A DNA stretch of 64,000 nucleotides, from positions 48,372-112,371 of IMG/VR virus record IMGVR_UViG_3300007511_000007, one strand, 5' to 3'. Positions 1 through 51,099 of this stretch are shown in pieces; positions within the stretch are counted from its first letter, which is position 1, and every line of letters starts with the position of its first letter. Source of the DNA: a virus. The notes beneath the pieces are model-generated. The model worked only from the letters and a program-made list of their open reading frames with translations, was not told where the DNA came from and did not search any database. The translations under genes were made by a program, and so were the position numbers.

Positions 1-3000
1 GTTTCTTCTCGGCCTTTTGTTGTTTCTGCTTTTCGGCTACAACCTTTTCGCCCTCTTCAAGAGTAGTGAGGATTATGTCCATCGAATTCTTATCTTCGAG
101 CTTCCCAAGCAATCGCTCTGCCCTGAACTTTGCCTCTTCAAGAGCATCCTTCGCTTTCTCCGCATCCTCAATCGCAAAGGCACTTTCCAGATTACCAAGT
201 GCTTCCTCCAGGGCTGCTTTCTCCTCATCGGGGCCTTCTAATTCCGCAAGCTCCTTCTTTGCCCCGGAGACCCCTGCCTCTTCCTCTTTGGGTTCCTTCT
301 CGCTTTCACCCTGCTCATCGGCTTCATCACTTTTGTACTTCGCCTGTTCTTCAGGGCTGAGGCTGTTCCAGCCCACCTGTGTAACTTCACCGCCTTCGGT
401 TTGGTGATCAAACTTCTTGCCCACAGCCCATTCAGGAGTATCCCCGGCCATCATCAAATGCCAGAATGCCACTCTCCCCGGAGAGGGGATGTCCTCGGAA
501 ATGAGCCAACGAGATGCAATCCTCTTGTAGTTCAAGGACATGTCTTTGTCGTCACCACGATCTCCGTGGTCAACATCGGGATCATCCTCGGGTTTGACCT
601 GCTCCCGGCGAAGATCATTGCGAGGCGGCTTCTTCTTTGGTTCTGGCCGCACCAAACGTTCCGCTTCTTCGTCTTCCTTTTCCCCATGGTCTTTGGTGGC
701 TTGCTTGAACTTTTCCTCACACGACCCGCACACAGCGGGCATCTCAAGGACTTCTGCGTGTTCATGTACTCTTTGTGGACAACGGCATTGGTTTTTGTTT
801 CCGCAGATCGGGCACGTCAAACGCCAATGCTCAGGCTGCAGGATCTGCATAATCTGAGCTACAGTCTCCCCTCTCCGAACATGCAGGTCATACAAACGGT
901 CGCCCGAAGCACTCCGATAGAGCTTCAGTTTTGCTTCATAAAGGGCTGACTGGCGCACCCCTTGATCACAATCTTCCAGATAGCCTGCCGCAATCAACTC
1001 ATCCACAGCATCGTCATCCACCTGGTGACCCCGAAGAAAGTACCCTTTTGGAGTCTTCAGAATAGGCTGCTGGTGAATGTCCATGTCCTGCATAATGGCC
1101 TGTTCATATCCGGTTAGGCTGGATTGCAGTCCCAGATCTCCCCGGAGCACCCACTCATCCCCATCACCTTCTGGGCCATCGGTAGCATTGTTGATGTTGA
1201 TGATGGCAACCTTCTTTCCTTTCTGCACCGACCCGTCATGGACATAAGAATCTTCCAGCCCCGGCACCAGATAGTCGGAACGCAAGATCGAAGTTGTGTG
1301 CCCAACGATGTCTGCCACTTCCTCAAGGGCTTTCTTGAACTCTTCCTTGAGGATCTTGTCTTTTTCTTTCCTCGCATGGGGGAGGGCCGGGCCTTTCTTA
1401 CGAACTTTTCCCAGAGCCTTTCGCATCTCACGGTTAGCGTGGAAGCCTCGCATATCCTTGGCAGTGATCTCGTAAGGTTTGAGATACTCATTGATATCAG
1501 ATGCGCTCACGTCGGGGAGGACTTCTTCGTCATCTCCCTTCCCTTTGGCCGCTGCTTTCAAGGCAGAAATCAACTTTGAGTCCGTAACTTCCTTGGTGTG
1601 TTTGACCCCAGACTTGCCAGTATACTTCAGGACCGCCTTCCCTTCTTTAAAGGATATATGGCTGGCTTTCCATCCCGTAACCCCGTAGTGGCCTTTGTCT
1701 GCGGAGTCCTCATTCCCGACTCGCTCATAAGTCTCGTTGATGAGAGCAACCGCCATCGCAGTTTGTTTCTTCTTGTCGTCCTTGGCGTTGAGATCCTTCT
1801 CTACTTGCTTACGGAGCTTGGGGTATTCCTTCTCAAGCTGTTCGAGCTTCTTAGCCTTCTCCCGGTGCCGATGCTGAACTTGCCCATCTGTGTATTCATA
1901 GACGACCTGCTCATCGCCATCCTTGTTCTTGATCTTTTTCTTGTCTTTGTACTTGGCCGCAACCCGGATCGCCTGTGCTACCATTCTACCGGCTTCTTTG
2001 CTGATCCCCTCCCAGTAAGGGTCGACGGAATAATCAGAGGGCAGTTCACCCTCCTCCTTGAGCTTCTCGACTCCTCTCTCAACATAGATGTCTTGATAGT
2101 CCCGGTCATTTCGGATCACCCAAGTACAGAACTTCCACAAAGCGTCCAACTCTTCTCGTCTCGGGGGGCGAGCAATTTCAGGATGAGCCAAATAATGCTC
2201 AACGATGTCGTGAAGGGCTGGTTCAAGAATATCCGCTGGGCCGTCCCCGATCACATAACCTGCTTGATTACCTGGGTCCATCTGCAAAGTCTCAGGATGA
2301 ATTGCCCAATACCCGGCTTGCTTCGAGAAACGAATTGCTACCCTCTTCGAACTCCCCTCAACGCCCCGACGGGCCAGTTGGAAACGCTTCCCCAACTCCG
2401 GGTAGAAACTAAAAACTTCCTGCGGTACTTCTTTGCCCCCCATCAGAGCCTTTGCGATTTCCCTCTTGTGCCTTGACCGATAAAACGCCAAATCCATCTC
2501 TCGTTTAGCGTCAAGTTCCTTCTTTTCCTTGCGGTACCCCACTTCTTCAGCAAACTGTTTTTCTAGCCTCTGACGCATAAAGACCTTTTTTGCCAATCCC
2601 TTGAGAACCCCTTTCTCTCTCCTTGTTCGGTTCGGGGTCGCAAACAAAGTGCCCCCGAGAAACGTAGCGAACTCTGCCTCCGTCGCCATTTCTCTAGGGT
2701 TAATGCCCTGTTCTCTCACCCATGCATCAAAAGGCAGATCCGGGCGTCTGATCTCTCGGAGCAGTCCTGAGTCACGGATGAACTCAGGTAAGGACATCTG
2801 CCAAAACTCCTTTCGAGATGCCCCTACCCTTTTCTCCAAATGCTCGTGCATTTCAGCATTGTTACTCCCCCACCCATGCGCGAGGGGATTTGCTGGAGTC
2901 AATGAGATCTTCTCCAGCTTCGGAAGTCCCCACACCTCGATGTCCTCCACATCCCACGCCCCTGTGGGCAGCTTCCCCTTGAATTCGCTATCAACGCCCT

Positions 3001-5152
3001 CCAGATAGCCCAACGTCGTATGCGGGCGATAAATGTGCGGTGAGACATCTACAAGGTCAAAGCCTGCCTCCTGGTACGCCTCAGCAAGCCTCCAGCGTAA
3101 TTCGGAGATAGGTCTCTCAAACCGAATGTTCATATGCGGGATCGCCAAGTCTTTCTCAGCATTACGGAAATAATCGACCTGATGGAACTCGGCTTTGGTC
3201 GTCGGCGTACCCAACCCACCAGGGATGATGGTTTCGGCAATATCGAGGAATTCCTGTTCTCGCCCTTTCACATCCCCGACAATCAAGAAGGTGATATGCT
3301 CCGGGGAATCATCATTGGCCAGTTCAGGAAACTGCTTCCCGAGTTTTTCGGGAACTCGGATGAAGAATCCTGCCGATGTGGAATCCCCCGTGACGCTGCC
3401 GTCCCCACCGGCAGTCTTACGGCTTTTCTCTTCCCAATACTCTGGGGGGTTGGACCATTCGTTCGACTCTCCCAGCAATTGCTTTGCTCTCTGAGAGTAC
3501 CACCACAAAGTGGAGCTTGCAGAATCAATGAACTCTTCCACTGCTTTGGGCTTCGGTCCCGGTGGCTCATCTTTCAAACTGTATGGGACTCCAATATCAA
3601 ACCCACTGTTTTTGACCCCAATCCACGCACGCCTCAGTTCCTCCTTCTGCTCCTCAGGAAGTGCCATGACTTGCTGCATGGTCACATTGTAATGCTCACA
3701 AATGAGATCAACCCACGGATTTAGCTTTCTATCGGTGATATTTTTGATGCTCCGAAGGAGGTGGTCAACTTCCACGCCATCTATAGGTCGGCCTAATGCG
3801 TCCCGGTACTCCATGTCGATTCTGTCAATGAAGTCCCCGGCCATATCCAAGGGGCCATCCCCAGTCCAATGCCCCGCATCGGGAACCTCTGGAATTTTCT
3901 CTGGATTCAACTCCCACCATGAGGCAGTTTTCAGGAACCGGGTTGCTACCTTTTGAGCAGGCCCCCTACGCTTCGTGATTTCGTCCATGACCGCATCCGT
4001 TAGATCGGGTTTCTTTGCCAACTCGGGCTTCTCCAGCATCAACTCTCGGGCAATCTGGAATGGAATCTGTCGTTCCGGGCCTTCCAAATTATGAATCTCA
4101 AACACTAGCCGTTGATCCACAAGAGGGCGTTGCAGGAGCTTAAGGAAGTTGTCCGCTTCCTTCGGCTTCATGCCCAGAGTGATCTTACGCAACGTTTCTT
4201 GCTGCTCAGGGGACAAGAATGAGATTGGAGACCGAACCTGAATCCCCAATCCCGCAAGATCCAACAAGAGTCCGACCCCCTTATCATTCAGGTGTCCGGA
4301 AAGGTAGCTGGCAAACGCGTTGTTCTCCCGCACCATCTCAGCGATGACTTTGAGAAGCCCCAACTTCTGCATGAGCTTCAGAGAGTCTCGGGCGTTCTTT
4401 TCCCTGATAACATTCTCCACCATGAGCTTGCCGATTGCTTCCCAAGGAGCTTTCTTCATCTTGGGGGCATTGCGTTTGATAGCGGCAGCAATCTGGGGTG
4501 GAATCGTGAAACCGTACTTAGCAACAAACTTCACGGCACGCAATAAGCGAGTTGGATCATCAGAGAACGTTTTGTCTGGATCAGACGGGCAACGGAGTTC
4601 TCCTTTCTGAAGATCACGTAAGCCACATCCCGTGATATCCACGATCTCAGCTTTATCCGGCCCCTTAGCGATCTCAGCCAATTCCCACATCAAGGTATTG
4701 AGCGTAAATTCCCGCCTCAACACATCTTCTTTAATTGTCGCAGGTTCAACCGTATGGGGTTTGTACCCTTTCCCGCCCTGGCCTCCATATGACTCTTTTC
4801 GGGCATTGGCAATCTCAAGTACCTCACCCTTCATGTCATGGCCGTCCAGATCCCAATGATCCTTCACAGTAACGATAGCAACCCCGTAGTTGTTCGTGAC
4901 CACACTGGTTCTGACAGGGATCGCTTTGACCAACTGGTTCGCAAACCATGCGGAGTCTCTGCCCTTCAACGCAATTGTATCAATTACAACATCCACATCC
5001 TTGATTGGAGCTTTGAGGAGATGATTTCGAACAGCCCCACCCACGATGTAAATGTGTTTGTCTGCCCGAGATTTCTTTGCGACTGAGGCCAGAAACTTGG
5101 CGAGGATTATTGCTCGCTTGTTTCTTCCTCGAATAGCTGTTTTTGAAACCAC
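1..5152 (-). CDS. Giant multidomain polyprotein, >=1717 aa, runs off the left edge: class II CCA/poly(A)-type nucleotidyltransferase (~5152-3960), 2H phosphoesterase (~3400-2890), type IB topoisomerase catalytic domain (~1950-1230), Cys-rich Zn finger (~815-715), acidic/coiled-coil tail
   Basis: Hand translation: GTG at 5152 after GAGGTG, with an in-frame TGA just upstream and no stop down to position 1 (probably why the ORF track omits it). Motifs: YIVGGAVRN..KDVDVV, EDVLRREFTLN, FSDDPTRLLRAVKF; HITF (3298) and HTTL (3022); ERVGNE, GKSG, AKDMR, VGHTTSILRSDY (Tyr 1273); CPICG..CRC..CGSC. Confidence 0.92.
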   Translation of the reverse strand, partial: MVSKTAIRGRNKRAIILAKFLASVAKKSRADKHIYIVGGAVRNHLLKAPIKDVDVVIDTIALKGRDSAWFANQLVKAIPVRTSVVTNNYGVAIVTVKDHWDLDGHDMKGEVLEIANARKESYGGQGGKGYKPHTVEPATIKEDVLRREFTLNTLMWELAEIAKGPDKAEIVDITGCGLRDLQKGELRCPSDPDKTFSDDPTRLLRAVKFVAKYGFTIPPQIAAAIKRNAPKMKKAPWEAIGKLMVENVIREKNARDSLKLMQKLGLLKVIAEMVRENNAFASYLSGHLNDKGVGLLLDLAGLGIQVRSPISFLSPEQQETLRKITLGMKPKEADNFLKLLQRPLVDQRLVFEIHNLEGPERQIPFQIARELMLEKPELAKKPDLTDAVMDEITKRRGPAQKVATRFLKTASWWELNPEKIPEVPDAGHWTGDGPLDMAGDFIDRIDMEYRDALGRPIDGVEVDHLLRSIKNITDRKLNPWVDLICEHYNVTMQQVMALPEEQKEELRRAWIGVKNSGFDIGVPYSLKDEPPGPKPKAVEEFIDSASSTLWWYSQRAKQLLGESNEWSNPPEYWEEKSRKTAGGDGSVTGDSTSAGFFIRVPEKLGKQFPELANDDSPEHITFLIVGDVKGREQEFLDIAETIIPGGLGTPTTKAEFHQVDYFRNAEKDLAIPHMNIRFERPISELRWRLAEAYQEAGFDLVDVSPHIYRPHTTLGYLEGVDSEFKGKLPTGAWDVEDIEVWGLPKLEKISLTPANPLAHGWGSNNAEMHEHLEKRVGASRKEFWQMSLPEFIRDSGLLREIRRPDLPFDAWVREQGINPREMATEAEFATFLGGTLFATPNRTRREKGVLKGLAKKVFMRQRLEKQFAEEVGYRKEKKELDAKREMDLAFYRSRHKREIAKALMGGKEVPQEVFSFYPELGKRFQLARRGVEGSSKRVAIRFSKQAGYWAIHPETLQMDPGNQAGYVIGDGPADILEPALHDIVEHYLAHPEIARPPRREELDALWKFCTWVIRNDRDYQDIYVERGVEKLKEEGELPSDYSVDPYWEGISKEAGRMVAQAIRVAAKYKDKKKIKNKDGDEQVVYEYTDGQVQHRHREKAKKLEQLEKEYPKLRKQVEKDLNAKDDKKKQTAMAVALINETYERVGNEDSADKGHYGVTGWKASHISFKEGKAVLKYTGKSGVKHTKEVTDSKLISALKAAAKGKGDDEEVLPDVSASDINEYLKPYEITAKDMRGFHANREMRKALGKVRKKGPALPHARKEKDKILKEEFKKALEEVADIVGHTTSILRSDYLVPGLEDSYVHDGSVQKGKKVAIININNATDGPEGDGDEWVLRGDLGLQSSLTGYEQAIMQDMDIHQQPILKTPKGYFLRGHQVDDDAVDELIAAGYLEDCDQGVRQSALYEAKLKLYRSASGDRLYDLHVRRGETVAQIMQILQPEHWRLTCPICGNKNQCRCPQRVHEHAEVLEMPAVCGSCEEKFKQATKDHGEKEDEEAERLVRPEPKKKPPRNDLRREQVKPEDDPDVDHGDRGDDKDMSLNYKRIASRWLISEDIPSPGRVAFWHLMMAGDTPEWAVGKKFDHQTEGGEVTQVGWNSLSPEEQAKYKSDEADEQGESEKEPKEEEAGVSGAKKELAELEGPDEEKAALEEALGNLESAFAIEDAEKAKDALEEAKFRAERLLGKLEDKNSMDIILTTLEEGEKVVAEKQKQQKAEKK

Positions 5153-5198: not shown

Positions 5199-8100
5199 CT
5201 AGAAGCGACCGCCATCATCCTTCGGCGGCTCATACTCCAAACCCAATTTCTCAGCGATCTGCTTCACAATTTCCGTACCTTCCACAAGTTTCGCAGCAAC
5301 ATCGTTGTAGACGCCCCGCACCATCTCATTGAAGGTAGGATCGTTTACTGTCCACAGATCCCGCTCCACCTTCTCACGGGTTCTTTCAGGATCAATGTTC
5401 AGAAGCTCAAGAATAATCTCGATGTCCAGCGACCCTTTCTGGTACAGGTTGAAGAGATGGTCGAACGTGTCGGAGTTGTCCCTCAAAGCCAACCGGGTAA
5501 AGGACACAGAGGGGTAGATGACATTCTCGTCATCATACTCATCAGCCTCAATGAACCCCATACGGCGGCACATTGGTTTGAAAAGTTGCTCCTCAATGAA
5601 GTCTTGAAGGATCTCACGCAAGAGCATGTATCTGGTATTGATGACCTCAAGATTGATCCGGTCTCCCGAATAGCTGGATTCTCCTGAAAGAAGACTTTCT
5701 GTGACACCCAGACCCGAATACATCTGGCGATCTGTGCGGTCATAAAGGTTCGACCAATCCGGAACTCGTGTGTCAGACCCCATCTCCTCCCAATTAACCT
5801 GGAAGTTGGTGACGATTGAGAAATCGGGGTCTGCCAGAGCCATATCAACCTGATCCCGCAATTCCTCGATATCGTCCACATCCATACCCTCGGCCCAGAC
5901 AATTCTGATGGGAGTCATGTGACGAGAAGCTATCGACGTTTCCGCCTGCCTAATCTTGTCTCGAAAAACGAGTATTCTCATGCAGTTGTGTACCAAAACC
6001 TCATGTGTTACTAGAGATTCGTCGTCTTCTACATCGAAGGAATAAACGATGCCTTTGTAATGCACTGCCTGTGTTTCCTTGATTTTTCTCAACAGCTTCT
6101 TTGATCCGGACCAACCAGTGTCTTTGCCCGCCCGATTCACTGCGGAGAGCTTACCCTCCCCTTTCACTGTCTGCTCGGCCCACTTCTTGACATCCTCGGT
6201 GGAGCAACAAGAGAGACCCCAAAAGTCTTTCTTTCCGTATTGGTATGTCTTCTCTTGCCACCCGGCTGCTGTTTTCCACTTCCGGGACCAATTACGTGCT
6301 TGCCGACTCCTTTTTTTAATCTGTGTTTTGATCCCAACACGATTACAAAGAAGATGGATCTGATGAATCAACAAGCGGTTATCGAGTTGGATTTCAATTT
6401 GCGCTGCGTTCTCATCCCAATGCAACCAACCATCTGTATCCAGCAATCCCTTAAGGAATGCTAAGATCCGTTCCTCGCCCAAATTGAAGACCCATTCAGG
6501 GACACTTTTACCCGAAGCCCCATGTCCAAACTCTTCCATGAACCATCGGGCCAAAAGCATATCTCCGATTCTGATTTGTGTGGCCTCCAGGTCCGCTTCA
6601 CCCACCCCAAACAAGTTCCCTCTGTCCAAGCCCCCGAATTGACTTAAGACGCCTTCAACTTTTTGTTTGAGTTTCTCATCTCGTTCACCCTTCCCAAAAG
6701 TCCATGCCAGACTATGCGTGTTGAGTAGAGAATCTTTTTGTGTCCAGACACAACCATCCCCCAACCAGGTTCCAACCAGATACATAAAGTCATCTGATAT
6801 AGAGATCTTGGAAACAGGGGAACTCAAACTTTTCGTGACGACTGCTCCTGGGACACGGATTTCTTTTGCTATTGGATGCCAAAGAGTTCCGTTTCCCTTT
6901 CCTCGGCCTTTGAACACCTTTTCGGTCTGCAGGCCAATTTGATTCCGCAGCCGTGAGACACAGGCACGGAGACCTGCATAGGTATGTCCAGTGATCCCCC
7001 TAATGGCTTCATAAGAAGCCTCAGTCGGTTCTTCTAATCCCTTGAGCCAATTGATCAGACGGGTAGACTTCTTGACGGCTTCTATCCGCCCTGCGTCATC
7101 CTGCTCATATTCAAAAGAAACAACAAGCTCTCCCGCTCCTGATGTGTCTGCCTCTATAGCAGTGATTTTCCGCTCCCGTCTCTCAAACCCTTTCTGGTTC
7201 TCCCTGAAGCGTCTATCAACTTCAAGTTCTTTTCCCCGCCACCAGTCGGCCAAATCAATCTCAGTAATCGGATTGGACTCAGGAACCACTTGCGCTTCTT
7301 TAACCAAATCGCCTTCTTTGAACTCTTGTGCTTCAATCCACTCTTCTGTCTCATCTTCGTTGACCCGCAGGATGCGGTGATCGGAAGTTACTGCCAAAGG
7401 CCGTTCAATACCCGCCACAGAAAGAATAGTTATTTCCTCATCTACGGGGCGAGAGCCTTTCTGAGCTTTACGGAATCTACCTTTGTGGGTCAACAGAGAA
7501 TCCACTTCAACGTCCACGTCTTCTACAGGAATTTGCTGAATGATACCGTTTCGTTTGACTGTGACCAGAGTGCCGGGTAGTAAGCAACGTTCCAGTAAGG
7601 AAGAACCCCGTGGCTCATATTGGGACTTCTTTCTGCACATGTAGTAGACAAAACTACCCGCGTCCGGATCTGTGTTCAAAGGAATGTTTCGTCCTTGAAG
7701 AATTGCAGACGTGACATCCCCCGGCATCGAATTTACAACCCGAATTGCGTCTCTGTCTCCCATATTGGCTTTCTGGATCACGTCCTTGGTCTTCGAGTCG
7801 GCTACCAACTCAATGATCTTCTCGTCCGTGAACGGGAATGCCTCCATATGAATCTGCTCAGGGGGTAGCACTCTGAGCGCAGTCCATCCTTTGTAGTTCT
7901 TCTTGAGCCACCCAACCGCCCGTGCATTGGCGTCTTCACGCAATTGCCATCGTTCAATTGCTTTGCCGTCTGGGGTCAGTTCCCGAATCGCCTCTTCACG
8001 AATCTCTTTCGGCATCTCCGGATTATTGTCCTCACAGAAAATGAAAACTTCGCCCAGCAAATGGTAGTCGTGGACAATCTCAATCAGACGATGGAGAATC

Positions 8101-8498
8101 TCATTTTTCTTGCACCACCGCTCACAAAATTCGAGGGCTTTCTCCGCAAGCGTCCGGTTCTTGGCCTTGGGCATCCCCAAACGAAGTTTGGAGAGAGGCA
8201 GTTCCGTGTGGAGGTCAATCGCCTGCCCGACAAAACAATCAGTTTTGTACCAGAACCGGTAATAGTTCCGTTGCTCGTCAATGCTCTGTGGAAGTTCAAG
8301 GAAGTCCGTGGATAACTCAGGAGAATAAAAGTTCCCCCCGGAACCCCCAACGGTACCACCTACCGTTGGGTAAGCCACCTTTGAGCGCATCGCAGAAGAC
8401 ATGATCTTGCGGGGTTTCCCCGTGGACACTTTGGGTCTCGGGGGGATCTTCTTTACCTCTACGGCAGTGTCATTCTGTGCCCGTTCTTCTTTGGTCAT
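5199..8498 (-). CDS. Portal protein interrupted by an intein (spliced product about 565 aa)
   Basis: Lies near terL; portal-like segments (FVGQAIDLHTELPLS, YEPRGSSLLER/CMRILVFRDK, SGESSYSG..NLEV); clear intein termini. Confidence 0.8.
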   Translation of the reverse strand: MTKEERAQNDTAVEVKKIPPRPKVSTGKPRKIMSSAMRSKVAYPTVGGTVGGSGGNFYSPELSTDFLELPQSIDEQRNYYRFWYKTDCFVGQAIDLHTELPLSKLRLGMPKAKNRTLAEKALEFCERWCKKNEILHRLIEIVHDYHLLGEVFIFCEDNNPEMPKEIREEAIRELTPDGKAIERWQLREDANARAVGWLKKNYKGWTALRVLPPEQIHMEAFPFTDEKIIELVADSKTKDVIQKANMGDRDAIRVVNSMPGDVTSAILQGRNIPLNTDPDAGSFVYYMCRKKSQYEPRGSSLLERCLLPGTLVTVKRNGIIQQIPVEDVDVEVDSLLTHKGRFRKAQKGSRPVDEEITILSVAGIERPLAVTSDHRILRVNEDETEEWIEAQEFKEGDLVKEAQVVPESNPITEIDLADWWRGKELEVDRRFRENQKGFERRERKITAIEADTSGAGELVVSFEYEQDDAGRIEAVKKSTRLINWLKGLEEPTEASYEAIRGITGHTYAGLRACVSRLRNQIGLQTEKVFKGRGKGNGTLWHPIAKEIRVPGAVVTKSLSSPVSKISISDDFMYLVGTWLGDGCVWTQKDSLLNTHSLAWTFGKGERDEKLKQKVEGVLSQFGGLDRGNLFGVGEADLEATQIRIGDMLLARWFMEEFGHGASGKSVPEWVFNLGEERILAFLKGLLDTDGWLHWDENAAQIEIQLDNRLLIHQIHLLCNRVGIKTQIKKRSRQARNWSRKWKTAAGWQEKTYQYGKKDFWGLSCCSTEDVKKWAEQTVKGEGKLSAVNRAGKDTGWSGSKKLLRKIKETQAVHYKGIVYSFDVEDDESLVTHEVLVHNCMRILVFRDKIRQAETSIASRHMTPIRIVWAEGMDVDDIEELRDQVDMALADPDFSIVTNFQVNWEEMGSDTRVPDWSNLYDRTDRQMYSGLGVTESLLSGESSYSGDRINLEVINTRYMLLREILQDFIEEQLFKPMCRRMGFIEADEYDDENVIYPSVSFTRLALRDNSDTFDHLFNLYQKGSLDIEIILELLNIDPERTREKVERDLWTVNDPTFNEMVRGVYNDVAAKLVEGTEIVKQIAEKLGLEYEPPKDDGGRF
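5985..7586 (-). mobile_element. Intein with LAGLIDADG homing endonuclease in the portal gene (534 aa)
   Basis: Begins CLLPGTLV, has a TSDH block B, ends VLVHN followed by Cys+1; LAGLIDADG-like LVGTWLGDG and LKGLLDTDG. Confidence 0.92.
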
Positions 8499-8802: not shown

Positions 8803-9047
8803 GTCACATCCTTCTTCGACACTATACCTGTGGAGATCGCCGCCTTCACAGTCTTCCGCAAAAGAGACATCTCATCCGTAGATCCCAGAAAGAGTTTCTC
8901 CCACGATCCCCCGGCTTTTTGGAACACTTCAGAGATCTTGTTGTATTCCTCAGCCTTGTCCAGAAATTTGCCGGGACTCACATCCAACAGCCGGGCGATC
9001 ATTCGATGATCAGCACGGGTTGGTTTTATCGCCGTGAGCGTGACCAT
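8799..9047 (-). CDS. Hypothetical protein
   Basis: ATG at 9047 preceded by GGAGGGGG; operon context. Confidence 0.65.
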   Translation of the reverse strand: MVTLTAIKPTRADHRMIARLLDVSPGKFLDKAEEYNKISEVFQKAGGSWEKLFLGSTDEMSLLRKTVKAAISTGIVSKKDVT

Positions 9048-10903
9048 GCCCCCCTCCACGCTGATCTAGCCCTTTGAACGTCTACTCTTCGAGAATCATG
9101 GCTCCCGGTACGATGCAGCCGTTTGAAGTTCGAGCTTCTTGTGCCTGCTCGACGAGCCATTCCCTGTCCCTTTCCGGTACCTTTGGACATGTACTTGGGT
9201 TGGGTGATTCTCTGTGTAGCCAACCAGATCATCCTCACCAGAGCGTCTGAACGGTCGTCGTGTTTCCCTTCAATGTTCGGAGCCTGAACCTTGGTGATGT
9301 GTTTGGAAACCCGTTCTTCCTGCAACTCTAACAACTCGGTGACATACCCACAGTGCGTTTCGCCATCGGCAATAGGCCAATCGTAGAGGACAACTCTACG
9401 ATCCCACATCATGTCTTTGAAGGTCTTGAAGATTTCTGAGTTGATAATTGGCGTCAGTTGTTTGGTCTTCATCCCTTTGACACCACGTTTCATCAACGCC
9501 TGCTCAAAGGGGATTCCGGCCCACTGGTCAAACAATCCCTCTGCAACATAGAAGCGGGACGCATGTGCTTTGACCCAATCCGCAACCTCATCGAACTCCA
9601 GGCGATCCTGTTGAGCGTATTTGCCTTCCCCGGCTTTGATCTGATCCACAAGGTCAACCACCACAACCGGCCCCATCTCGGGGTCTTGCTCGATATGCCC
9701 AATTGCGATTGCTGAACCGTCTCCTTTCAACCCAACGTCAATCCCCACGAAATGAGGTACCTTGGTGGGGCCTGATGTCTGGGGTCTGCGATCAGGGTCG
9801 ATACATGCGATCAAGTCCCGCTCGTCCTCGATCCAACCCTTGGTTCGGTCGGTAAACTCGGCTCCGTATTCGGTGAAGAACTCGGTGGGGTCTTTGAGAT
9901 ACTGCTTCATGTACTCAGCTTTGGGAACCGTGGGGTTAATTTCCCAAGTTGGTGCCTGAATACACAGCATGTCTTCCGCTACCTCACCACCCCGCATCGC
10001 CATCTGGAACTGCTTGTAGAACAACCCCTGCCGCCCCATTGGGGATGAAATCAGGATCATGCGAGCTTCAACGTTCCCAATGGGGACTCTGGGATCGTCA
10101 GGGTCTTTAGGGGAGAACGCTGACAGAGAAGGCTTGATAGCTCCATAGACGGCATCCGCACTGGACTGCCCCGATTCTACAAAGTGGGCAACCTCATCCA
10201 AGATGACAACCAGGTTACCTGCACCTCGAAGCCCCTTGGCAACACAAGACTTGAACGTCACATTGATACTGGCCTTGGCCGCAGGGTCTTCGCTGTATCT
10301 CCCAAACCGATTAATGTCCTTTGGGGTCTGGAACTTCGCATAGGACATTGTGTTGTTGGCCGTGAACGTTTTGAAGAAACCACATTGACGGAAGTGGTTC
10401 GACACCCCCTGATAGAGCAACCCCGCCTGATCCTTGTCCGTCGCTACAGACGTGATTTGGATCATATCCGAACCCGGGAGTCCGTAATATGCCTGCGGGT
10501 CTCCCTTGCTCAAGAGCTTGTACGTTTCGTAGGCTGCAATACAGGCAGAAATCAGAGTCTTCCCTGACCGTCTTCCCAATGACAAAACCATTTCCCGACG
10601 TTCATCCCCGGCGACTACTTGCCGGATATTACATCGGCCTTCATCATACATGTGACGAAGGTAAGCTGCCTCCGTCATCATCTCGATATCTTCCAGCCTC
10701 CAATCGTCGGGGACCGGGACTATCTTCTCTTTCGTGTCGAGAGGCACCCCATAGTGAGCCTTCAGAATGACTCTTTGAGCGGGGAACAACTTGAAATTCA
10801 GCCCCCACCCGGATTCAATGAAAGTGATAATGTCGACAATCTTTCGCCCTTGATCAGGGTTAATCCCACCACCAGCATGTTTGACCAGGTCACCAAGACT
10901 CAT
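9026..10903 (-). CDS. terL: Terminase large subunit
   Basis: Walker A LGRRSGKT, Walker B VVILDEVAH, motif III LISSP, nuclease GIDVG and HDDRSD; ATG 10903 overlaps the upstream stop (ATGA). Confidence 0.93.
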   Translation of the reverse strand: MSLGDLVKHAGGGINPDQGRKIVDIITFIESGWGLNFKLFPAQRVILKAHYGVPLDTKEKIVPVPDDWRLEDIEMMTEAAYLRHMYDEGRCNIRQVVAGDERREMVLSLGRRSGKTLISACIAAYETYKLLSKGDPQAYYGLPGSDMIQITSVATDKDQAGLLYQGVSNHFRQCGFFKTFTANNTMSYAKFQTPKDINRFGRYSEDPAAKASINVTFKSCVAKGLRGAGNLVVILDEVAHFVESGQSSADAVYGAIKPSLSAFSPKDPDDPRVPIGNVEARMILISSPMGRQGLFYKQFQMAMRGGEVAEDMLCIQAPTWEINPTVPKAEYMKQYLKDPTEFFTEYGAEFTDRTKGWIEDERDLIACIDPDRRPQTSGPTKVPHFVGIDVGLKGDGSAIAIGHIEQDPEMGPVVVVDLVDQIKAGEGKYAQQDRLEFDEVADWVKAHASRFYVAEGLFDQWAGIPFEQALMKRGVKGMKTKQLTPIINSEIFKTFKDMMWDRRVVLYDWPIADGETHCGYVTELLELQEERVSKHITKVQAPNIEGKHDDRSDALVRMIWLATQRITQPKYMSKGTGKGQGMARRAGTRSSNFKRLHRTGSHDSRRVDVQRARSAWRGAWSRSRR

Positions 10904-11598
10904 GAGGGTACCCCCCGGATGGTATTCTTGATTTTGTTCTTGGCCTCTTGTTCCCAATGGGCATCCATCTTCTTGGAGAGGTTATCGAACACAAGATCAA
11001 CCATCTCCGAAGGCAATCCGGATTCTCGCATAGCGTATTGGAACGTCTGCATGATATGGGAAAAGAGTGTCTTGAAAGCGGGGCTGTCGAACTCCAGGGT
11101 TGACGAATCGATCTCTTTCTTCTTCTTGAGCCACGTTTCCCCAATCGTGCGCAGAGCTTTCAGCCGACGGCTAGAAAACCCCGAAGTGCTGTCCCCCTCT
11201 CTTTCGGCCACACTCTTGTCATAGTCCAGGGACGCCGCCTCCTTAGCCATCTCCTTGAGGATGTGGTCAAGAATGTCGGTCGAGTCAGGATTCTTCCCCA
11301 TGGCTGTTACGATTGGATCATTCACGACGACGGATTCTCGTTGTCGCACCCATTCTGCCACTTCCGGATTTTTGGGGTCGGGCAAAGACACTTTCGGTTT
11401 ACCGACACCCCCCTTACGGCCGGGGAGATTCTTCATCACGATGGGTTCACCGGATTTCTTGGTCACTATCGTATCGGTTGTCTTTACCTCATCTCGATTC
11501 CGCCACCGAAGATTGCCGTCTTTATCCGTTACTTTTACTCGGAGAGCGTCCTTGGGGAGTTTGGCCGCAATCGCTTTCGCGTTTTGTTTACCCGACAT
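10900..11598 (-). CDS. Putative terminase small subunit
   Basis: Directly upstream of and translationally coupled to terL; basic N-terminus and helical C-terminus; positional inference only. Confidence 0.5.
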   Translation of the reverse strand: MSGKQNAKAIAAKLPKDALRVKVTDKDGNLRWRNRDEVKTTDTIVTKKSGEPIVMKNLPGRKGGVGKPKVSLPDPKNPEVAEWVRQRESVVVNDPIVTAMGKNPDSTDILDHILKEMAKEAASLDYDKSVAEREGDSTSGFSSRRLKALRTIGETWLKKKKEIDSSTLEFDSPAFKTLFSHIMQTFQYAMRESGLPSEMVDLVFDNLSKKMDAHWEQEAKNKIKNTIRGVPS

Positions 11599-11670: not shown

Positions 11671-12240
11671 TCAGGTATGGATTGCAGGGCCAATCGTGGG
11701 GGCACCAACAGTCAAGAATCCAGTCGTAGGAGCTAACACGAAGTTGGTCTTTGTCCCCAGATGTTCCACGGTGAACGGAACTAAACCACCCCCTGGTCCC
11801 ATTGGACCAGTGATGTTGATCACCCCCAATCCAGCATCCGTTCCGGTGAAACCGGGGAGATTGTTGAGCATTGTTGCCAAAGCTGCAGCCACATTCAAGA
11901 GAGTCGGATTCGGGTACGCCGCTAATGCCATGATGGGTGGGGCTGTGGCGACCTCAAACTGAATATCTCCAAGGGTGAGGTAAACAAACCCGGTACCAAG
12001 CTCACAATTCCCTGCCCCATCCGTGTTCTGTACGGTGAGAGTTCCGGTGGAGACTGCGGCTGCCCCAGTGGACATCCCCTGAACATTGATACCATCCGAA
12101 AACTCGAATACCTGATCCTGAACAGCATTTCGCCAACTACCGCTACTATGGGGGTGTGCTTGTCCTTTACCGGGATCACCACCAAATTGTCCCGTGCCCA
12201 CGAGCTTCCGAAACGGCGGTTTGTTCTTTACGGTTTTCAT
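11671..12240 (-). CDS. Hypothetical Gly/Thr-rich protein, possibly a virion structural protein
   Basis: Beta-rich, G/T/A-rich composition; ATG 12240 overlaps the upstream stop. Confidence 0.6.
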   Translation of the reverse strand: MKTVKNKPPFRKLVGTGQFGGDPGKGQAHPHSSGSWRNAVQDQVFEFSDGINVQGMSTGAAAVSTGTLTVQNTDGAGNCELGTGFVYLTLGDIQFEVATAPPIMALAAYPNPTLLNVAAALATMLNNLPGFTGTDAGLGVINITGPMGPGGGLVPFTVEHLGTKTNFVLAPTTGFLTVGAPTIGPAIHT

Positions 12241-13136: not shown

Positions 13137-15595
13137 ATCTCGAAGCCCCCACCAAAGAAGATGTCCCCGATGTCTCCGAAGTCAGGATCATCACTCAATT
13201 TGATATTATCCGTAGCAGAACCGAGATCGAACTCAGCGGGGTCATGTGCTGGGGCGAAAAGGCTCGCCGTCATCTCAGCATCACCTGCTCCTGCGGCTTT
13301 GATGTTGGCCTGTTTCACTTTCTCGATTGCCGCCCCGTCCCCGCTCTCTGCTGCTATCAATGTCTTGTTGTACTTCTGACAAACTTGGGCTTCAATGGGC
13401 TGGTCGTCTGCCCCGGTGATCAATTTGGCATTGGCGAACTTGCAGGCATGGCAACGCTCCATCTCCAGAAGCATCGGGATACCATTGACCCGATGTTTTG
13501 ACGCCCCTTTGTCACAACCCTTGGTGCCTGTCTTGCTCGCATACACATGCGGGTCAACATAAAGGAATCCAGCAGCCCCCTCATGCGCCTTCCGCAGGGT
13601 GCTGATGGCCTCTTGTGCGGCCAAACGGACATCGCTGGTAAGGCGCATCTTGATGAGGTCATCCAGATCCTTCCCAGCGGAACCCTCATTCATAGCTTTG
13701 GCTACCCACAGCAATGACGCTCGCAATTTCTTCGGCTGTGCGTTGATCCATTCCGACACTTCCTGTACGGAAGCGGTTTTCTTGGCAGCTACTTGCTTGC
13801 GCTGAGGCACTGCAGCCTCAAACCTGTGTCCTTTGTAGTCTTCTGTCTGAGCCGCATTTTTCAGACTGGCCACTACCTGCCGCCCCAGCTTGAGTGCTTC
13901 ATCCACTACCGCTGCGGGGGAACGTCCCCCTTCTTTGTACAGTTGTTTCCGCAATTCAGGGGTGATCATCACACCATTGGATTCAATGGACTCTGTGAGA
14001 AGGCGTTTTACAGCTTGAGATTGTTTGTGGTACCAGTCGAGAAACTCAGAGTTCTGCTTGATTGCAGCCCCCTTGGGACTCCGATAGGCATTCGCCTTGT
14101 AATTGCCCCCGACATATTCCTTCGTCTCCGTAGCCTGAACCCCTTTCTTCCTTACCGCCGTCAAAGCCAGCACCATCGCTTCCCGAGGGGACTTACCCAA
14201 GGAAAAGATGCGATTGACTTCAGTGGCCGAAAGCACCCCGGCTGAGACATATTTCTTTTCGAGGTATTCACGAGCTTGTTTGTTCTGTGCCGCCCACATC
14301 TCCTGAGTCTCCATTGCGGTCTTGGACTCAGCCCGGGACAAGAGTTCCCATGCATTGCGGGTTTCCCGTTCGTCCGGGGCAGCAGCAATAAACGAGACCC
14401 CGATTCCATCATACTCTTTGCTGGGTGCCGTCGCCGCAACAAGTTTGGTCGCCGCTTTGAGGACATCAGCAGGGGGAGCCGTGGATTGGAACAGACGTTT
14501 GGCGGCTTCCTGGCTCAAAAGCCCGGCCCGCATCTTCTGTGCAATCCAGCCATGCGCTTTCTTACGCTGACCTTTGATGACCCTTTGCCCGACACTCACT
14601 TGCTGGCGAGGCTCGGGAGTTGCCGCTGCGAATTGCTTCTGAGCTTCCTCAGAAGTCACGGTATCAACAGCCTTCACCTCAACCGGCTTGAAACTGTCCT
14701 TTGCTGCCGACTCACCCGGGCCAGCGAGAAATGCTTTTTTCAAAATCTCAGGCGGGGCCAGATCCCCGTCTTCGGTGAGCACATAACCCAAAGACTGGAG
14801 CTTGGGGCCGTAGTGGGCCATCGCTTCGTCCCACGGCATCACTACCACAGCTTCCTTGCCCACGACCCCCCCGACGGGGCTTCCTTCTTCCGCAATGATG
14901 TACTTGGCACTCCCGCACTTCTTACGGATTATTTCCTTCCATTTCCCATTCTTCAGCCCGGGAAAAGCTGCTGCTCGAATGAAGACCTTACCTGCCAGCC
15001 CGTGCTCATTCACGAGCCTCCTCATTGTTTGGGCGATCCTGGGGAAGTCGGGGCCAAGTTCCTCGCGGGCTTCTTTGATGATCTCCGCAATCGGGTACCC
15101 ATAAGCTGATTTCCGCATCGCCCGCTGGACGACTCGAAGCAGATCTTCCGTACTAGCCTTCTTCGCCGTGGGTGTCGAGGCGTGGCTTTCCTTGTAGGGC
15201 AAACGTTGGTTGACCCCATCTGTTCTATGCTCAACGCCCCATGCTTGCTCCAACTCTTCAATCCCTTTGTCCACGGGGTTTACCGGAAGTCGATCTGGAT
15301 CTTGCTCACCATGCAACCAGCCCAGCCCGGCAAGGCTGCCCTCTTTCATCAGTTGATCCAAATCCCCGATCTGATGGCTCGCAGACTGACTGTCTACATC
15401 CCCTTCGGGAACGGCATCTACAACCAGACCGTCAGGAAGATCTGCCAACCCGTGTACTTCAGGCAGTCTCGCATTGTCCAGGACGCCGCTTCCATACTCC
15501 GTGTCGAATTGAAATCCGTCCAGACCGTAATTGTACCCATCGGTCATGGTGAAATCATCAGACGGCATGTTGGATTTCGATTTCTTATCAGTCAT
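13133..15595 (-). CDS. Large hypothetical protein (820 aa) with acidic termini and a Cys cluster; possible head/scaffold protein
   Basis: Long ORF with GCDKG..RCHACKF..VCQKY; contains KKA and KKTA sites. Confidence 0.75.
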   Translation of the reverse strand: MTDKKSKSNMPSDDFTMTDGYNYGLDGFQFDTEYGSGVLDNARLPEVHGLADLPDGLVVDAVPEGDVDSQSASHQIGDLDQLMKEGSLAGLGWLHGEQDPDRLPVNPVDKGIEELEQAWGVEHRTDGVNQRLPYKESHASTPTAKKASTEDLLRVVQRAMRKSAYGYPIAEIIKEAREELGPDFPRIAQTMRRLVNEHGLAGKVFIRAAAFPGLKNGKWKEIIRKKCGSAKYIIAEEGSPVGGVVGKEAVVVMPWDEAMAHYGPKLQSLGYVLTEDGDLAPPEILKKAFLAGPGESAAKDSFKPVEVKAVDTVTSEEAQKQFAAATPEPRQQVSVGQRVIKGQRKKAHGWIAQKMRAGLLSQEAAKRLFQSTAPPADVLKAATKLVAATAPSKEYDGIGVSFIAAAPDERETRNAWELLSRAESKTAMETQEMWAAQNKQAREYLEKKYVSAGVLSATEVNRIFSLGKSPREAMVLALTAVRKKGVQATETKEYVGGNYKANAYRSPKGAAIKQNSEFLDWYHKQSQAVKRLLTESIESNGVMITPELRKQLYKEGGRSPAAVVDEALKLGRQVVASLKNAAQTEDYKGHRFEAAVPQRKQVAAKKTASVQEVSEWINAQPKKLRASLLWVAKAMNEGSAGKDLDDLIKMRLTSDVRLAAQEAISTLRKAHEGAAGFLYVDPHVYASKTGTKGCDKGASKHRVNGIPMLLEMERCHACKFANAKLITGADDQPIEAQVCQKYNKTLIAAESGDGAAIEKVKQANIKAAGAGDAEMTASLFAPAHDPAEFDLGSATDNIKLSDDPDFGDIGDIFFGGGFEI

Positions 15596-16409
15596 GGATT
15601 TCTCCTAATGCTCGCCGTGCAGCAACCCTACGGGCAAGGTGTCTCTCTTTTTCCCGCAGCTTATCCAACCCTGTCTTCCCGAGAAGCTCACCTACGATCT
15701 TTTTATGAAGCAGAACCTGTCTCTTGTCCCCGATCAGGATAGTCCCCCTGCCAGTCTGGAACCCTAAGATGTTCCAGTACGATTCTAGTTCCTTCTTGTT
15801 CATCCGGGACAATTGTTTCCTAACGGACTTCTCATCCAAAGAATTGCTGGCTGTCTTCTTGGTGCCGTGTTCTTCGTCCATCTCCTCTTCTTCTTCCTCA
15901 GCCCAACCCTCAGGATCAGAACGGATATCCTCAGCGTCCTCAACGATATCCTTGACTTCCTGTTTCTCCTCGGGGGTTTCCTGACGGGAGATCGCAGCCC
16001 AGTGGGGAGCTTGCACTTCATCGTAAAGGGTGTCCGAGATTGCAGACAACGCCTCTATAACATTCATGAACTGGCGACGCATGTGCGTGATCTTCATCAC
16101 ATAACCCTTGCCGCCTAAGGAACCGTCGGGAGAGATTTTGGCCGATTTGAGTTTAGCAAAAGTGCTGTAAGCTGACATCGCATGTCCCAAAGCAGCAGAG
16201 CCTGAGCGTAAAACCTGAGCCACGGGTTTCATGTGCTTGGGGTTGAAGGCGTACTCAGGAGTAATCTGTCGTTCTGTCGCCCCGGTGTCCCCAAATGCCC
16301 ATTCGTTGCCGTCGTCACTCTTATCTTTGATGAACCGGACTTCACCTGCGGTTTTGAGATTTTTCCCCTTCAAGAACCGCTCTGAAACCCGTTTTTTGAG
16401 ATCGCTCAT
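15588..16409 (-). CDS. Hypothetical tagged protein
   Basis: N-terminal KRVSERFL..LKTA, internal KKTA, C-terminal RRVAARR. Confidence 0.75.
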   Translation of the reverse strand: MSDLKKRVSERFLKGKNLKTAGEVRFIKDKSDDGNEWAFGDTGATERQITPEYAFNPKHMKPVAQVLRSGSAALGHAMSAYSTFAKLKSAKISPDGSLGGKGYVMKITHMRRQFMNVIEALSAISDTLYDEVQAPHWAAISRQETPEEKQEVKDIVEDAEDIRSDPEGWAEEEEEEMDEEHGTKKTASNSLDEKSVRKQLSRMNKKELESYWNILGFQTGRGTILIGDKRQVLLHKKIVGELLGKTGLDKLREKERHLARRVAARRALGEIHD

Positions 16410-16433
16410 ATTGACACACCGCCCATAGTCAAT

Positions 16434-16462
16434 CCTATTCATTCCATACTATAGAGGGATTA
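16434..16462 (-). promoter_or_regulatory. Putative late promoter motif, copy 3
   Basis: TAATCCCTCTAT-N13-TAGG; the 12-mer is identical to the copy at 23321-23332. Confidence 0.65.
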
Positions 16463-16468: not shown

Positions 16469-17314
16469 CTAGAATGCTGCCACCTGTTCAGGACGGGCTT
16501 CGACCCCCATCGCTTCCCAGTTCACAATGAACCCCTTTTTAGGAACCCATTCAAGGTAGTGGTTCTTGACTAACCAGATGAGTCGGAGAGCAATCGTAAC
16601 GGGGAGAGCACCATAACCCAACCCAAACGCCGCGGCAATGAAACCTACCCCCGACTCGGGCAATGAAGCGAAAAGTTCCCCGAGAGAGATTGATCCCGTG
16701 AACCCGGCAATGAGTCCTTCGATGTCCCACGAAATTTCCGCAACATTGAACCACACCCAGGCGAAGATGAATGCCAAGAGTGGCTTCTGGAGAGTCGGGA
16801 GATGCTTCTTCAGCATACGGTCGAGCGGATCAACAACGTTGGTTTTCACTTTGGCCAGGAGAGCTTTCATTTTGGGGGACACTTTGATAATACGAGACAT
16901 CAAATCAGTCAGCCCAGGCATCTTCTTTTTCGAGACGAAGAAGATACAAAGAGGGAAAACCTCAACGATCTTCCGCATAACTTTGCCGAGGGCCTTCTTT
17001 CCCCGCTTCGCCCATTCCTTGATCTTCTTCGGGATTTCGGTGATTTTCTCAACCCCAAGGAGAGCCTTGAACTTCGTCCAGAGTCTCGGAGCCTGCCGGA
17101 ACAAGTTAAGCAGTTTCTTCAGTCGCCTGACCAAGCCTCCGAAAGCGACTCTCCCCTCATGCGTCAAGAGAACTTCGCCCAACGCCGCCAATACCTCGGG
17201 TGTCAGATCGTCAAGGGCTGCTGTCCGGTGGAGGAAACTCTCCTCGTAGTACACCTCTCTCGCAGCTTTCAGGATGAGGTAACGATCTGAGACTGTGGCG
17301 ACAGTGGTTTTCAT
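16469..17314 (-). CDS. Hypothetical tagged protein with hydrophobic, possibly membrane, C-terminal helices
   Basis: TVSDRYL, HRTA, GRVA; hydrophobic segments LLAFIFAWVWFNV and GFIAAAFGLGYGAL. Confidence 0.72.
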   Translation of the reverse strand: MKTTVATVSDRYLILKAAREVYYEESFLHRTAALDDLTPEVLAALGEVLLTHEGRVAFGGLVRRLKKLLNLFRQAPRLWTKFKALLGVEKITEIPKKIKEWAKRGKKALGKVMRKIVEVFPLCIFFVSKKKMPGLTDLMSRIIKVSPKMKALLAKVKTNVVDPLDRMLKKHLPTLQKPLLAFIFAWVWFNVAEISWDIEGLIAGFTGSISLGELFASLPESGVGFIAAAFGLGYGALPVTIALRLIWLVKNHYLEWVPKKGFIVNWEAMGVEARPEQVAAF

Positions 17315-18036
17315 TTTGATTCTTCGAGATACCTTTTTGCCACGTTTCCTGCGAGTAGCCTCGGCCCCATGCCCAATTCTCTCTCAGGTTTCTCCCACCA
17401 GTCTTCCCGTTCCAGAATATCGATCCAGAAGGCAGGGTTCCCCATTGTTTTCTTGGCTTCCTTTTGGTACTTGGCGATAGACAGAAAGAATTTGATAAGA
17501 CTCTTTTTGGGTTTCAAGAATTGGGCAGCATTGTCGTGCAGCCACTGCACTCCAGCCCGCCGCAGCTTTTGTTCACTCCGTAAGCGTGAGACTAGGAGAA
17601 ATTTCTTCAAAGCATCACTGATCGCCCTCATATCCAGATCGGCAATATCAGTAACATAGCGGTATTCTGGTGCCGCCGATTCCCCGGTAAGACGCATCTT
17701 CAATCCCGAGTCCCGTAATACCTGAAGCTCAAAAACACGTTCATTCTCCCTGTCGACCTCGTATTCGACATCCTCATAAGCTGAGAGATCGAAATCGGCC
17801 TTAATGCTCGCCACCGGAACCCCGTAATGGGCAGCAACTGCGGCGAGCATCTTTCGGTAAGGGACTGTCGGGAAAATGACCTTCTTGGAGAGGGGGGATT
17901 TCCCCCTCTTTCGCAGCTTCATCTTATCGGCAAGGACTTCGGAAGCCGTATTCGAATAGAAGTAATGGTGGGGATTCTGCTCCAAAGAACGAAGTAGACT
18001 CTCAGAGATCGGTGTCACCACTGCTGGATCAGCCAT
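17311..18036 (-). CDS. Hypothetical tagged protein
   Basis: RBS AGGAG; C-terminal NVAKRYL. Confidence 0.72.
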   Translation of the reverse strand: MADPAVVTPISESLLRSLEQNPHHYFYSNTASEVLADKMKLRKRGKSPLSKKVIFPTVPYRKMLAAVAAHYGVPVASIKADFDLSAYEDVEYEVDRENERVFELQVLRDSGLKMRLTGESAAPEYRYVTDIADLDMRAISDALKKFLLVSRLRSEQKLRRAGVQWLHDNAAQFLKPKKSLIKFFLSIAKYQKEAKKTMGNPAFWIDILEREDWWEKPERELGMGPRLLAGNVAKRYLEESK

Positions 18037-22975: not shown

Positions 22976-23281
22976 TTACCACAAACCTGTCGTGAGATAG
23001 CTACGTTTGAGGAACCATTTCTCCAGAGTCTTGAGAGCAGTTCGGTTACCAGACCAGAATTCAATGGAGTCGTAGTCTTCTTTGATCCCCAGGTCAGGAA
23101 TCGGGGAAACTCCTGCCATGGCTATTTTGCGATCCCGAAAAGAACGCAAAAGACCGGCCAGATTCTTGATTTCATGCCCATGGTACACCTTCAGCCGATA
23201 CTCGGCTCGGACTTCCGCTTCAAGAAACCTCTTGGCCACGGATTTCGCCATGACAACTCGGCGTTCAGAGGGTTTCGCCAT
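22976..23281 (-). CDS. Hypothetical tagged protein
   Basis: KSVAKRFL near the N-terminus; RBS GAGG. Confidence 0.7.
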   Translation of the reverse strand: MAKPSERRVVMAKSVAKRFLEAEVRAEYRLKVYHGHEIKNLAGLLRSFRDRKIAMAGVSPIPDLGIKEDYDSIEFWSGNRTALKTLEKWFLKRSYLTTGLW

Positions 23282-37285: not shown

Positions 37286-37347
37286 TACATCCCCCAGCGC
37301 AAGAAGCACAAAAGTGTCATCTATATCTACTCCATTCCGCCAGTTTT

Positions 37348-43564: not shown

Positions 43565-43711
43565 TGATATCCTGCTTCCCAATAAAGAACCTTCACGAAT
43601 TCGGATGCCGTTTACATTTGGTAACAACCCCCTCTAAGACAGTTCCACCGAACCGCCCCACCCGACTGCCTCTTTCTCTAGCCAGCCCCCAGGCGCACAA
43701 GGAGGTGTAGT

Positions 43712-45264: not shown

Positions 45265-45314
45265 AGTAGTCCACCTCCTAAAGAGTATCTACTCCAAATG
45301 TCCGCAAAAAGAGA

Positions 45315-49169: not shown

Positions 49170-49190
49170 TGAAGTCTCCTTACAGACCAA

Positions 49191-49220
49191 CTCAAAAAGG
49201 CACATCGCATAAGGAAAATA
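49191..49220 (-). promoter_or_regulatory. Putative late promoter motif, copy 5
   Basis: TATTTTCCTTAT-N14-TGAG. Confidence 0.6.
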
Positions 49221-51087: not shown

Positions 51088-51099
51088 GGGTTCTTTCTC

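Follow-up and report, generated by a model that had tools for sequence, protein, structure and literature searches.

A giant polyvalent phage protein with a CCA-type nucleotidyltransferase and a 2H phosphoesterase as candidate RNA 3′-end repair cargo, and with a topoisomerase IB

We analysed a 64,000-nucleotide stretch of viral DNA (hereafter the window), which corresponds to bases 48372-112371 of the 112-kb IMG/VR record IMGVR_UViG_3300007511_000007 (the contig; CheckV completeness ~21%). At its left end lies a giant open reading frame (ORF) of 2047 aa that contains three enzymes, a class II nucleotidyltransferase (NTase), a LigT-type 2H phosphoesterase and a topoisomerase IB (Topo), all with complete catalytic residues, together with at least four modules without a family. 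The ORF is on the minus strand at contig 47380-53523 and is uninterrupted (0 stops, 0 frameshifts). Reading the frame on the contig places it at window 1-5152, with a GTG start at 5152 that is 46 nt downstream of the stop of the upstream gene, and with its last 330 codons (991 nt) preceding the window start. The original prediction, made from the letters alone, described window 2890-5152 as a CCA-type nucleotidyltransferase paired with a 2H phosphoesterase. Both domains are real and lie at that place; however, the interval is only residues 1-754, the N-terminal 37% of the 2047-aa protein, and the unit is one ORF rather than two genes or a 754-aa protein. The polyvalent context with a topoisomerase IB and the insert of ~185 aa between the two domains had been overlooked. 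Misassembly or an artificial fusion was rejected as an explanation of the ORF, since a 2571-aa homologue from other samples (P0003) has 78% identity and the same layout, and >100 family members share the build. Approximately 100 nt past the stop of the ORF, a G+C-rich hairpin with 6 G-C pairs and a weak T run (L002:266-282, contig ~47266-47282) is a possible terminator.

The first 400 residues (window 3953-5152, minus strand) form a CCA/poly(A) polymerase-type NTase of class II with head, neck, body and tail. Pfam PolyA_pol (PF01743) matches the module at 58 bits (cut-off 23), and in PHROGs it matches phrog_2244, tRNA nucleotidyltransferase, at E 1.4e-31. We found the expected motifs as GGAVRN at aa 38-43 (window 5024-5041), DVD at aa 52-54, RRE at aa 146-148 (window 4709-4717) and DDPTR at aa 198-202 (window 4547-4561), the last two being the variants to which the original prediction had drawn attention. 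In an alignment with 11 relatives, D52, D54, R146, R147, D199 and R202 are unvarying, RRx ends in either E or D, and xDPxR varies in its first residue; the two variants are thus family polymorphisms and not defects. Sequence matches in the PDB include cca2, cca1, poly(A) polymerase and A-adding enzymes. An AlphaFold2 model (predicted local distance difference test score, pLDDT, 87) aligned in Foldseek over its full length (~360-440 columns) with the CCA enzymes of T. maritima, Planococcus and B. stearothermophilus (best E 2.8e-11), and its matches include a tRNA-bound CCA-adding enzyme, A-adding and CC-adding enzymes, and the E. coli poly(A) polymerase. Every NCBIfam equivalog cut-off was missed by far (TIGR02692, 98.6 bits vs a cut-off of 438.8; pcnB, 89.3 vs 305.65), and no HD domain was found in the giant protein with Pfam. 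Judged from its sequence, the module is a complete class II enzyme with CCA, A and poly(A) all as candidate products, so that a CCA-adding enzyme and a poly(A) polymerase cannot be separated at this level, a point the original prediction had missed. In several relatives inteins break the NTase near motif B, which is typical of conserved, functionally constrained sites. Additionally, an insertion of ~0.8-1.3 kb splits the NTase after approximately residue 150-250 at L029:6547-9126, L037/L038:3274-5784, L030/L031:7222-9144 and L036:3066-5268, and family members with this layout have Pfam intein and LAGLIDADG matches.

The 2H phosphoesterase occupies residues 585-765 (window 2858-3400, minus strand). 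Both predicted HxT motifs were found, H619-I-T621 (window 3290-3298) and H711-T-T713 (window 3014-3022), and neither varies in 28 sequences. No Pfam 2H model (PF13563, PF02834) matches the module itself at E<=1, TIGR02258 gives only 18 bits, and the single sequence yielded chance matches only against the PDB (phmmer). Because of this, membership was established through homologues with Pfam matches and through a profile. The module matched 36 segments in the family at E 1e-25 to 1e-45, some of which carry Pfam 2_5_RNA_ligase2/LigT, as does a matching solo protein of 234 aa, and the homologues P0011, P0016 and P0113 (E 1e-25 to 1e-33 to the module) match PF13563/PF02834. The profile of the 28 sequences matched LigT-type chains of the PDB exclusively (1vdx, 5h7e and 1iuh; E ~3e-6). 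Both HxT motifs were in register in these matches, in 1vdx with its catalytic HxT motifs. Used as a query for related loci, the single sequence found none and the alignment found 35. The subfamily is small and phage-specific, with 446 phmmer matches among 1.84 billion representatives, none of them an ordinary cellular LigT; proteins with this 2H range from 171 to 3381 aa and carry the module at any position.

The AlphaFold2 model of the 2H module (pLDDT 90.4) supports the fold, with a Foldseek match to LigT at E 1.8e-7. The VIA Z scores were 15.2 for the Deinococcus cyclic phosphodiesterase (drCPDase; over 160 residues), 13.9 for YjcG and 13.7 for E. coli LigT, then 12.4 for Usb1, 11.6 for rotavirus VP3, 8.3 for phage Acb1 and 8.1 for the penguinpox cyclic GMP-AMP (cGAMP) phosphodiesterase. 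Acb1 (7t26) ranks 40th, beneath all LigT-like, AKAP18, Usb1 and VP3 entries, with a root-mean-square deviation of 4.2 over 126 residues. The comparison with Acb1, LigT and YjcG proposed in the original prediction thus gave far closer matches to LigT and YjcG than to Acb1. The model places the module with the RNA 2′,3′-cyclic phosphodiesterases, and this is its predicted activity. It has the fold and both HxT motifs of LigT/ThpR, drCPDase and YjcG (Z 13.7-15.2); however, it is only 12-19% identical to them, belongs to the phage-specific subfamily and is embedded in multidomain proteins. The BFVD neighbours of the model include actinophage ‘capsid morphogenesis’ and structural fusion proteins.

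The topoisomerase IB module spans residues 1059-1320 (window 1193-1978, minus strand; Pfam PF01028, 97 bits). R1144, K1180, R1235, H1285 and Y1294 align with the catalytic pentad of variola TopIB (2h7f), and 6z01 and 2f4q were also aligned. In the rest of the protein (aa 401-584, 766-935, 936-1058, 1321-1500 and the C-terminus), nothing in Pfam or NCBIfam matched above noise. This part includes copies of a short recurrent motif of the form ~[KR]-[VI]-A-x-R-[FWY]-[LM] (hereafter the tag). The insert between NTase and 2H (aa 401-584, window 3401-3952, minus strand) holds a tag-like KVATRFL, a small domain and an unassigned stretch; the leads from a protein atlas for aa 401-585, among them one LPD39 cluster at 0.82, all fell below threshold. 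The small domain of ~65 aa occurs twice, at aa 401-465 (window 3758-3952) and aa 936-1005 (window 2138-2347), with 35% identity between the copies (BLASTP E 1e-9; also phmmer), and each copy sits right behind a tag. The second belongs to a segment with the tag RVAIRF at aa 936-1058 (window 1979-2347, minus strand; BLASTP, phmmer and motif list). DUF5661, which is common in relatives, was rejected as the identity of this domain, as it is a distinct small domain that is absent from the giant protein. Residues 766-935 (window 2348-2857, minus strand) are a module without a family that has phmmer matches in 7 family members and directly precedes the Topo module in several relatives. Behind the Topo module follow a further module without a family at aa 1321-1440, a Cys-rich, zinc ribbon-like stretch at ~aa 1445-1480 (window 713-820, minus strand), recognised by its cysteine pattern and weak Pfam matches to Cys_rich_KTR and Zn_ribbon_Elf1 (E 0.05-0.08), and a module at aa 1501-1620 (window 293-652, minus strand) that family comparison showed to be conserved and that includes the tag KRIASRWL (window 500-523). 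This last module is present in 73 of 110 family members, invariably behind Topo. The C-terminal region is acidic.

The NTase, the Topo module or both recur in more than 100 relatives of 1100-3300 aa, whose contigs reach 511 kb. Their partner modules are 2H, PAP2, HAD_SAK_1, ART-PolyVal, InPase, NUDIX, superoxide dismutase, PRTase, ChaC/GGACT, C39 peptidase, GNAT, RNA ligase and inteins, and split forms exist with NTase and Topo in successive genes. Among 30 giant relatives with both 2H and NTase, the two are directly adjacent in 22; the 2H leads in 16 of these and the NTase in 6. A second set of 150 proteins was recruited by the 2H alone and so carries no bias toward the NTase; the NTase was nevertheless present in 40 of them, including 17 of the 26 longer than 1200 aa, and 23 of these had it adjacent to the 2H. 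Minimal proteins of 2H and NTase (560-620 aa; for example P0129) are also common. Further fusions join this NTase lineage to HAD_SAK_1, alone or together with a P-loop kinase, to an Rnl-type RNA ligase, in some cases with a 2H as well, and to InPase and 2H; in P0152 the NTase, an RNA ligase and a 2H make up one protein. The predicted activities of these fusion partners are end healing, sealing and pyrophosphate removal. Elsewhere in the window, a 521-aa protein (57381-58946, minus strand) has an N-terminal C39-like peptidase domain of the kind also seen in the giant relatives.

The giant ORF belongs to a head module that is opened by the large terminase gene (window 9026-10957, minus strand; phrog_2, E 9e-22). 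The same-strand gene order is large terminase, portal (with intein), giant ORF, 455-aa ORF, prohead protease (with intein), EF-hand protein, 221-aa protein and major capsid protein. The portal gene lies immediately upstream of the giant ORF (window 5199-8498, minus strand; phrog_16240, E 2e-23) and encodes 1099 aa, of which aa 306-835 are an intein (Pfam Intein_splicing, LAGLIDADG_3); portals of relatives, at ~560 aa, align to both flanks of this ~530-aa intein, and L015 has a similar insertion. The prohead protease (phrog_18299; contig 42678-45362, minus strand, L003:14678-17362) was identified from PHROGs and Pfam and likewise carries an intein (Hint, LAGLIDADG_3, Intein_splicing), and protease matches are split in the same way in several relatives. 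We surveyed 52 IMG/VR loci recruited by the Topo or the 2H module, 41 of which include the portal. In 39 of these 41 the modules lie directly behind the portal, and protease and capsid genes come next where the sequence reaches. A clade of huge phages has thus kept the slot between portal and prohead protease, filling it with modules that are shuffled, split or fused. Among public phages the closest is LR745208.1, an uncultured 485-kb phage with the same gene order and a terminase that is 59% identical, while the best terminase match in a cultured phage has 30% identity. A similar fusion was absent from cultured phages: the phage collection gave NTase matches of <=35% identity and one Topo match, to LR745208.1.

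Just beyond the capsid gene, an 896-aa protein (contig 36592-39282, minus strand, L003:8592-11282) has LAGLIDADG endonuclease, N6/N4 DNA methylase and CGNR zinc-finger domains. At window 40238-43627 (minus strand), a 1129-aa ribonucleotide reductase has an internal HNH/homing-endonuclease segment at ~aa 494-830 that is probably another intein.

The concept of polyvalent proteins and of their delivery in the capsid comes from Iyer, Burroughs, Anand, de Souza and Aravind (2017; PMC5512222). In domain content and gene context the giant protein is polyvalent, with unrelated effector domains in one polypeptide, a portal-terminase phage and a virion-gene context. As in that paper, many unrelated enzymatic domains occur per giant polypeptide, virion genes are the neighbours, shuffling is heavy, and relatives carry ART-PolyVal, InPase, PRTase, GNAT and 2H. 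MuF, MPTase and LPD domains were not detected in the giant protein. In contrast to our family, the paper has 0 occurrences of ‘CCA’, has topoisomerase in its reference list only, and states that polyvalent 2H domains are never found with RNA ligases, whereas P0152 has NTase, RNA ligase and 2H together. Polyvalent proteins and phage RNA repair were each known, and no description of this module combination and conserved slot was found in the literature searched.

The tag recurs at module borders, with 147 matches in 110 family proteins vs 24 in shuffles. Across the 116 longest non-overlapping ORFs of the phage, a stricter pattern gave 12 matches vs 0.6 expected from shuffles, mostly near termini. 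An RVAxRY[LM]-like motif is found near the N- or C-terminus of approximately eight otherwise unrelated proteins, including a SNF2-family helicase; examples of tag-bearing proteins from the motif scan, all on the minus strand, are at window 15588-16442, 16469-17314, 17311-18036, 22976-23281, 47226-49205 and 51100-54819. In related loci the tag was found 52 times vs 4.3 expected, although ~16 of the 52 are a conserved portal segment that happens to fit the pattern. In stand-alone relatives, 21 of 56 tag copies lie within 30 residues of an end vs 4.7 expected. Other copies are exactly at the 2H-NTase junction, and the NTase and Topo genes of the split forms start with a tag. The enrichment and positional bias of the tag are confirmed, while its role is predicted. 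A cut site for the prohead protease is disfavoured, since stand-alone proteins also carry the tag, at 7-11 residues from their N-terminus and 10-17 from their C-terminus; these positions would fit a docking peptide better. One tentative reading is that the slot is a hypervariable cargo cassette, in which a portable helix heads or ends each module, heads the stand-alone versions of these modules as well, and would direct a customisable kit to the capsid, to be delivered when the phage infects. What that kit would contain is a similarly speculative matter: RNA 3′-end repair and a topoisomerase IB in this phage, with ART, pyrophosphatase, superoxide dismutase, NUDIX and others in relatives.

For the 2H and NTase of this polyvalent protein, we somewhat favour a role in which the 3′ ends of tRNA or other RNA are healed and nucleotides are then added back. 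The giant protein would be loaded into the prohead, possibly via the RVAxRY[LM]-like helix at module borders, and later ejected along with the DNA. Once inside the cell, the 2H would open the 2′,3′-cyclic phosphates that metal-independent defence RNases leave at the ends of tRNA or other RNA, yielding a 3′-OH,2′-PO4 end by analogy with LigT and Trl1-CPD enzymes. The 2H cyclic phosphodiesterase (CPD) domains of tRNA ligases leave such ends (PMC5029449, PMC11571804), and this product would free the 3′-OH needed by a nucleotidyltransferase. The NTase could then restore lost 3′ nucleotides (CCA or part of it), so that translation capacity would be recovered ahead of any phage gene expression, and the Topo module may act on the incoming genome. 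Repair is favoured over anti-signalling because the 2H is LigT-like, because 2H and NTase are adjacent in relatives, and because the NTase is fused to RNA-repair domains. The original prediction had left the cargo as counter-defence against tRNA 3′-end attack and/or cyclic oligonucleotide signalling; the first part fits the head-module position, the 2H-NTase coupling and the RNA-repair fusions, whereas the Acb1-like part is weakened by the structural comparison.

Several observations weigh against a repair role. In the giant protein itself NTase and 2H are ~185 aa apart and not adjacent, and the majority of 2H-bearing relatives in the 2H-recruited set are without the NTase. The PcnB and CCA models of NCBIfam give the NTase similar scores, and poly(A) polymerase structures are also among its matches. 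We infer packaging from gene position and analogy only, and the NTase step assumes a class II enzyme that tolerates the 2′-phosphate of a 3′-OH,2′-PO4 end. There is no phosphomonoesterase or ligase module in the giant protein, and no phosphatase, RNA ligase, RtcB or Tpt1 on the 112-kb fragment, although this absence says little because the fragment is only ~21% of the genome. Additionally, the roles that Iyer et al. favoured for the 2H domains of polyvalent proteins are those of an RNase or of a signal-degrading enzyme (PMC5512222).

Signal degradation is the most probable of the alternatives, although we consider it unlikely. Here the 2H would degrade cGAMP, cyclic oligoadenylates or 2′-5′ oligoadenylate in the manner of the Acb1, poxvirus and rotavirus 2H enzymes, and the NTase would act independently. 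Viral 2H enzymes do have this activity, with VP3, ns2, the penguinpox cGAMP phosphodiesterase and Acb1 among the structural matches; the role is one that Iyer et al. proposed for polyvalent 2H domains (PMC5512222), and it sits well with the finding that most 2H-bearing relatives are without an NTase. However, the Z scores of Acb1 (8.3) and the cGAMP phosphodiesterase (8.1) are far under the 13.7-15.2 of drCPDase, YjcG and LigT, the PDB matches of the 2H profile are of LigT type only, and this reading would explain neither the preferential adjacency to the NTase in either order nor the occurrence of RNA ligase, kinase and phosphatase in the same fusions.

Less probable again is a role in host takeover, in which the NTase, as a poly(A) polymerase, would add tails that mark host RNAs for decay, and the 2H would be a Usb1-like 3′ exoribonuclease or end-trimmer. 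The E. coli poly(A) polymerase/PcnB models score about like the CCA models, Usb1 is a good structural match (Z 12.4), and an RNase role was suggested by Iyer et al. (PMC5512222). The top structural and sequence matches of the NTase are nevertheless CCA-, CC- and A-adding tRNA enzymes, including a tRNA complex, and the ligase, kinase, phosphatase and pyrophosphatase modules to which relatives fuse it are a set for repair and not for decay.

No tRNA genes were found within the window; outside it, ARAGORN identified a tRNA with the anticodon CTA (amber-reading) at contig 12007-12080 (plus strand), followed by the bases AAAAAG and not CCA, and the only other prediction on the 112-kb fragment is a doubtful tRNA-Ser. 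That the sole credible tRNA on the contig has no encoded CCA, and that CCA-adding enzymes are common in the translation gene sets of huge phages (PMC7162821, PMC7824862), would suit an unpackaged intracellular enzyme that matures CCA-less phage tRNAs and supplies a topoisomerase for replication, with its place in the head cluster incidental, yet this is the least likely of the three alternatives given a position between portal and prohead protease kept in 39 of 41 loci of a diverse clade, a polyvalent architecture with ART-PolyVal and InPase modules in the family, and a 2H that tRNA maturation does not need.

The family can be compared with systems in which similar enzymes act alone or in other company. 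The E. coli CCA-adding/repair enzyme is a class II NTase with an HD phosphohydrolase that is able to clear a blocked 3′ end before addition. The giant protein similarly joins a class II NTase to a phosphoesterase, and the model NF008137 matches its NTase head domain; however, its phosphoesterase has a 2H fold at a distance of ~185 aa with no HD, and NF008137 reaches 66 bits vs a cut-off of 451. Acb1 shares with our protein the 2H fold and the phage origin, and a counter-defence role is proposed here as well, although it is a much weaker structural match; Acb1 is small and cytoplasmic and is not known to have an NTase partner. An answer to tRNA damage, as proposed here, is also given by T4 Pnkp/Rnl1 and by the ‘Swiss Army Knife’ (SAK) RNA repair proteins, reportedly described by Burroughs and Aravind in 2016, and relatives of the NTase carry the corresponding HAD_SAK_1, P-loop kinase and Rnl-type ligase domains. 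Unlike T4 Pnkp/Rnl1, the giant protein is without kinase, phosphatase or ligase, so that its repair would be of 3′ ends only and would be performed by proposed virion cargo rather than by expressed enzymes. Finally, the Topo module resembles the virion-packaged topoisomerase IB of poxviruses in its R-K-R-H-Y pentad, its alignment to variola TopIB and its origin in a large DNA virus, whereas in our phage it is built into a giant multi-module protein for which gene position is the sole pointer to packaging.

If 3′-end repair by packaged cargo is the function of this protein, huge phages would bring ready-made RNA-repair enzymes into the cell, and tRNA damage by abortive-infection RNases could be undone before phage transcription, unlike with the expressed Pnkp/Rnl1 of T4. 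The polyvalent concept would then extend to CCA-type nucleotidyltransferases and type IB topoisomerases, and the polyvalent 2H domain would be tied to RNA repair instead of signal degradation. The fused, split and minimal two-domain forms are natural experiments, and the tag provides a testable handle on how capsid cargo may be chosen.

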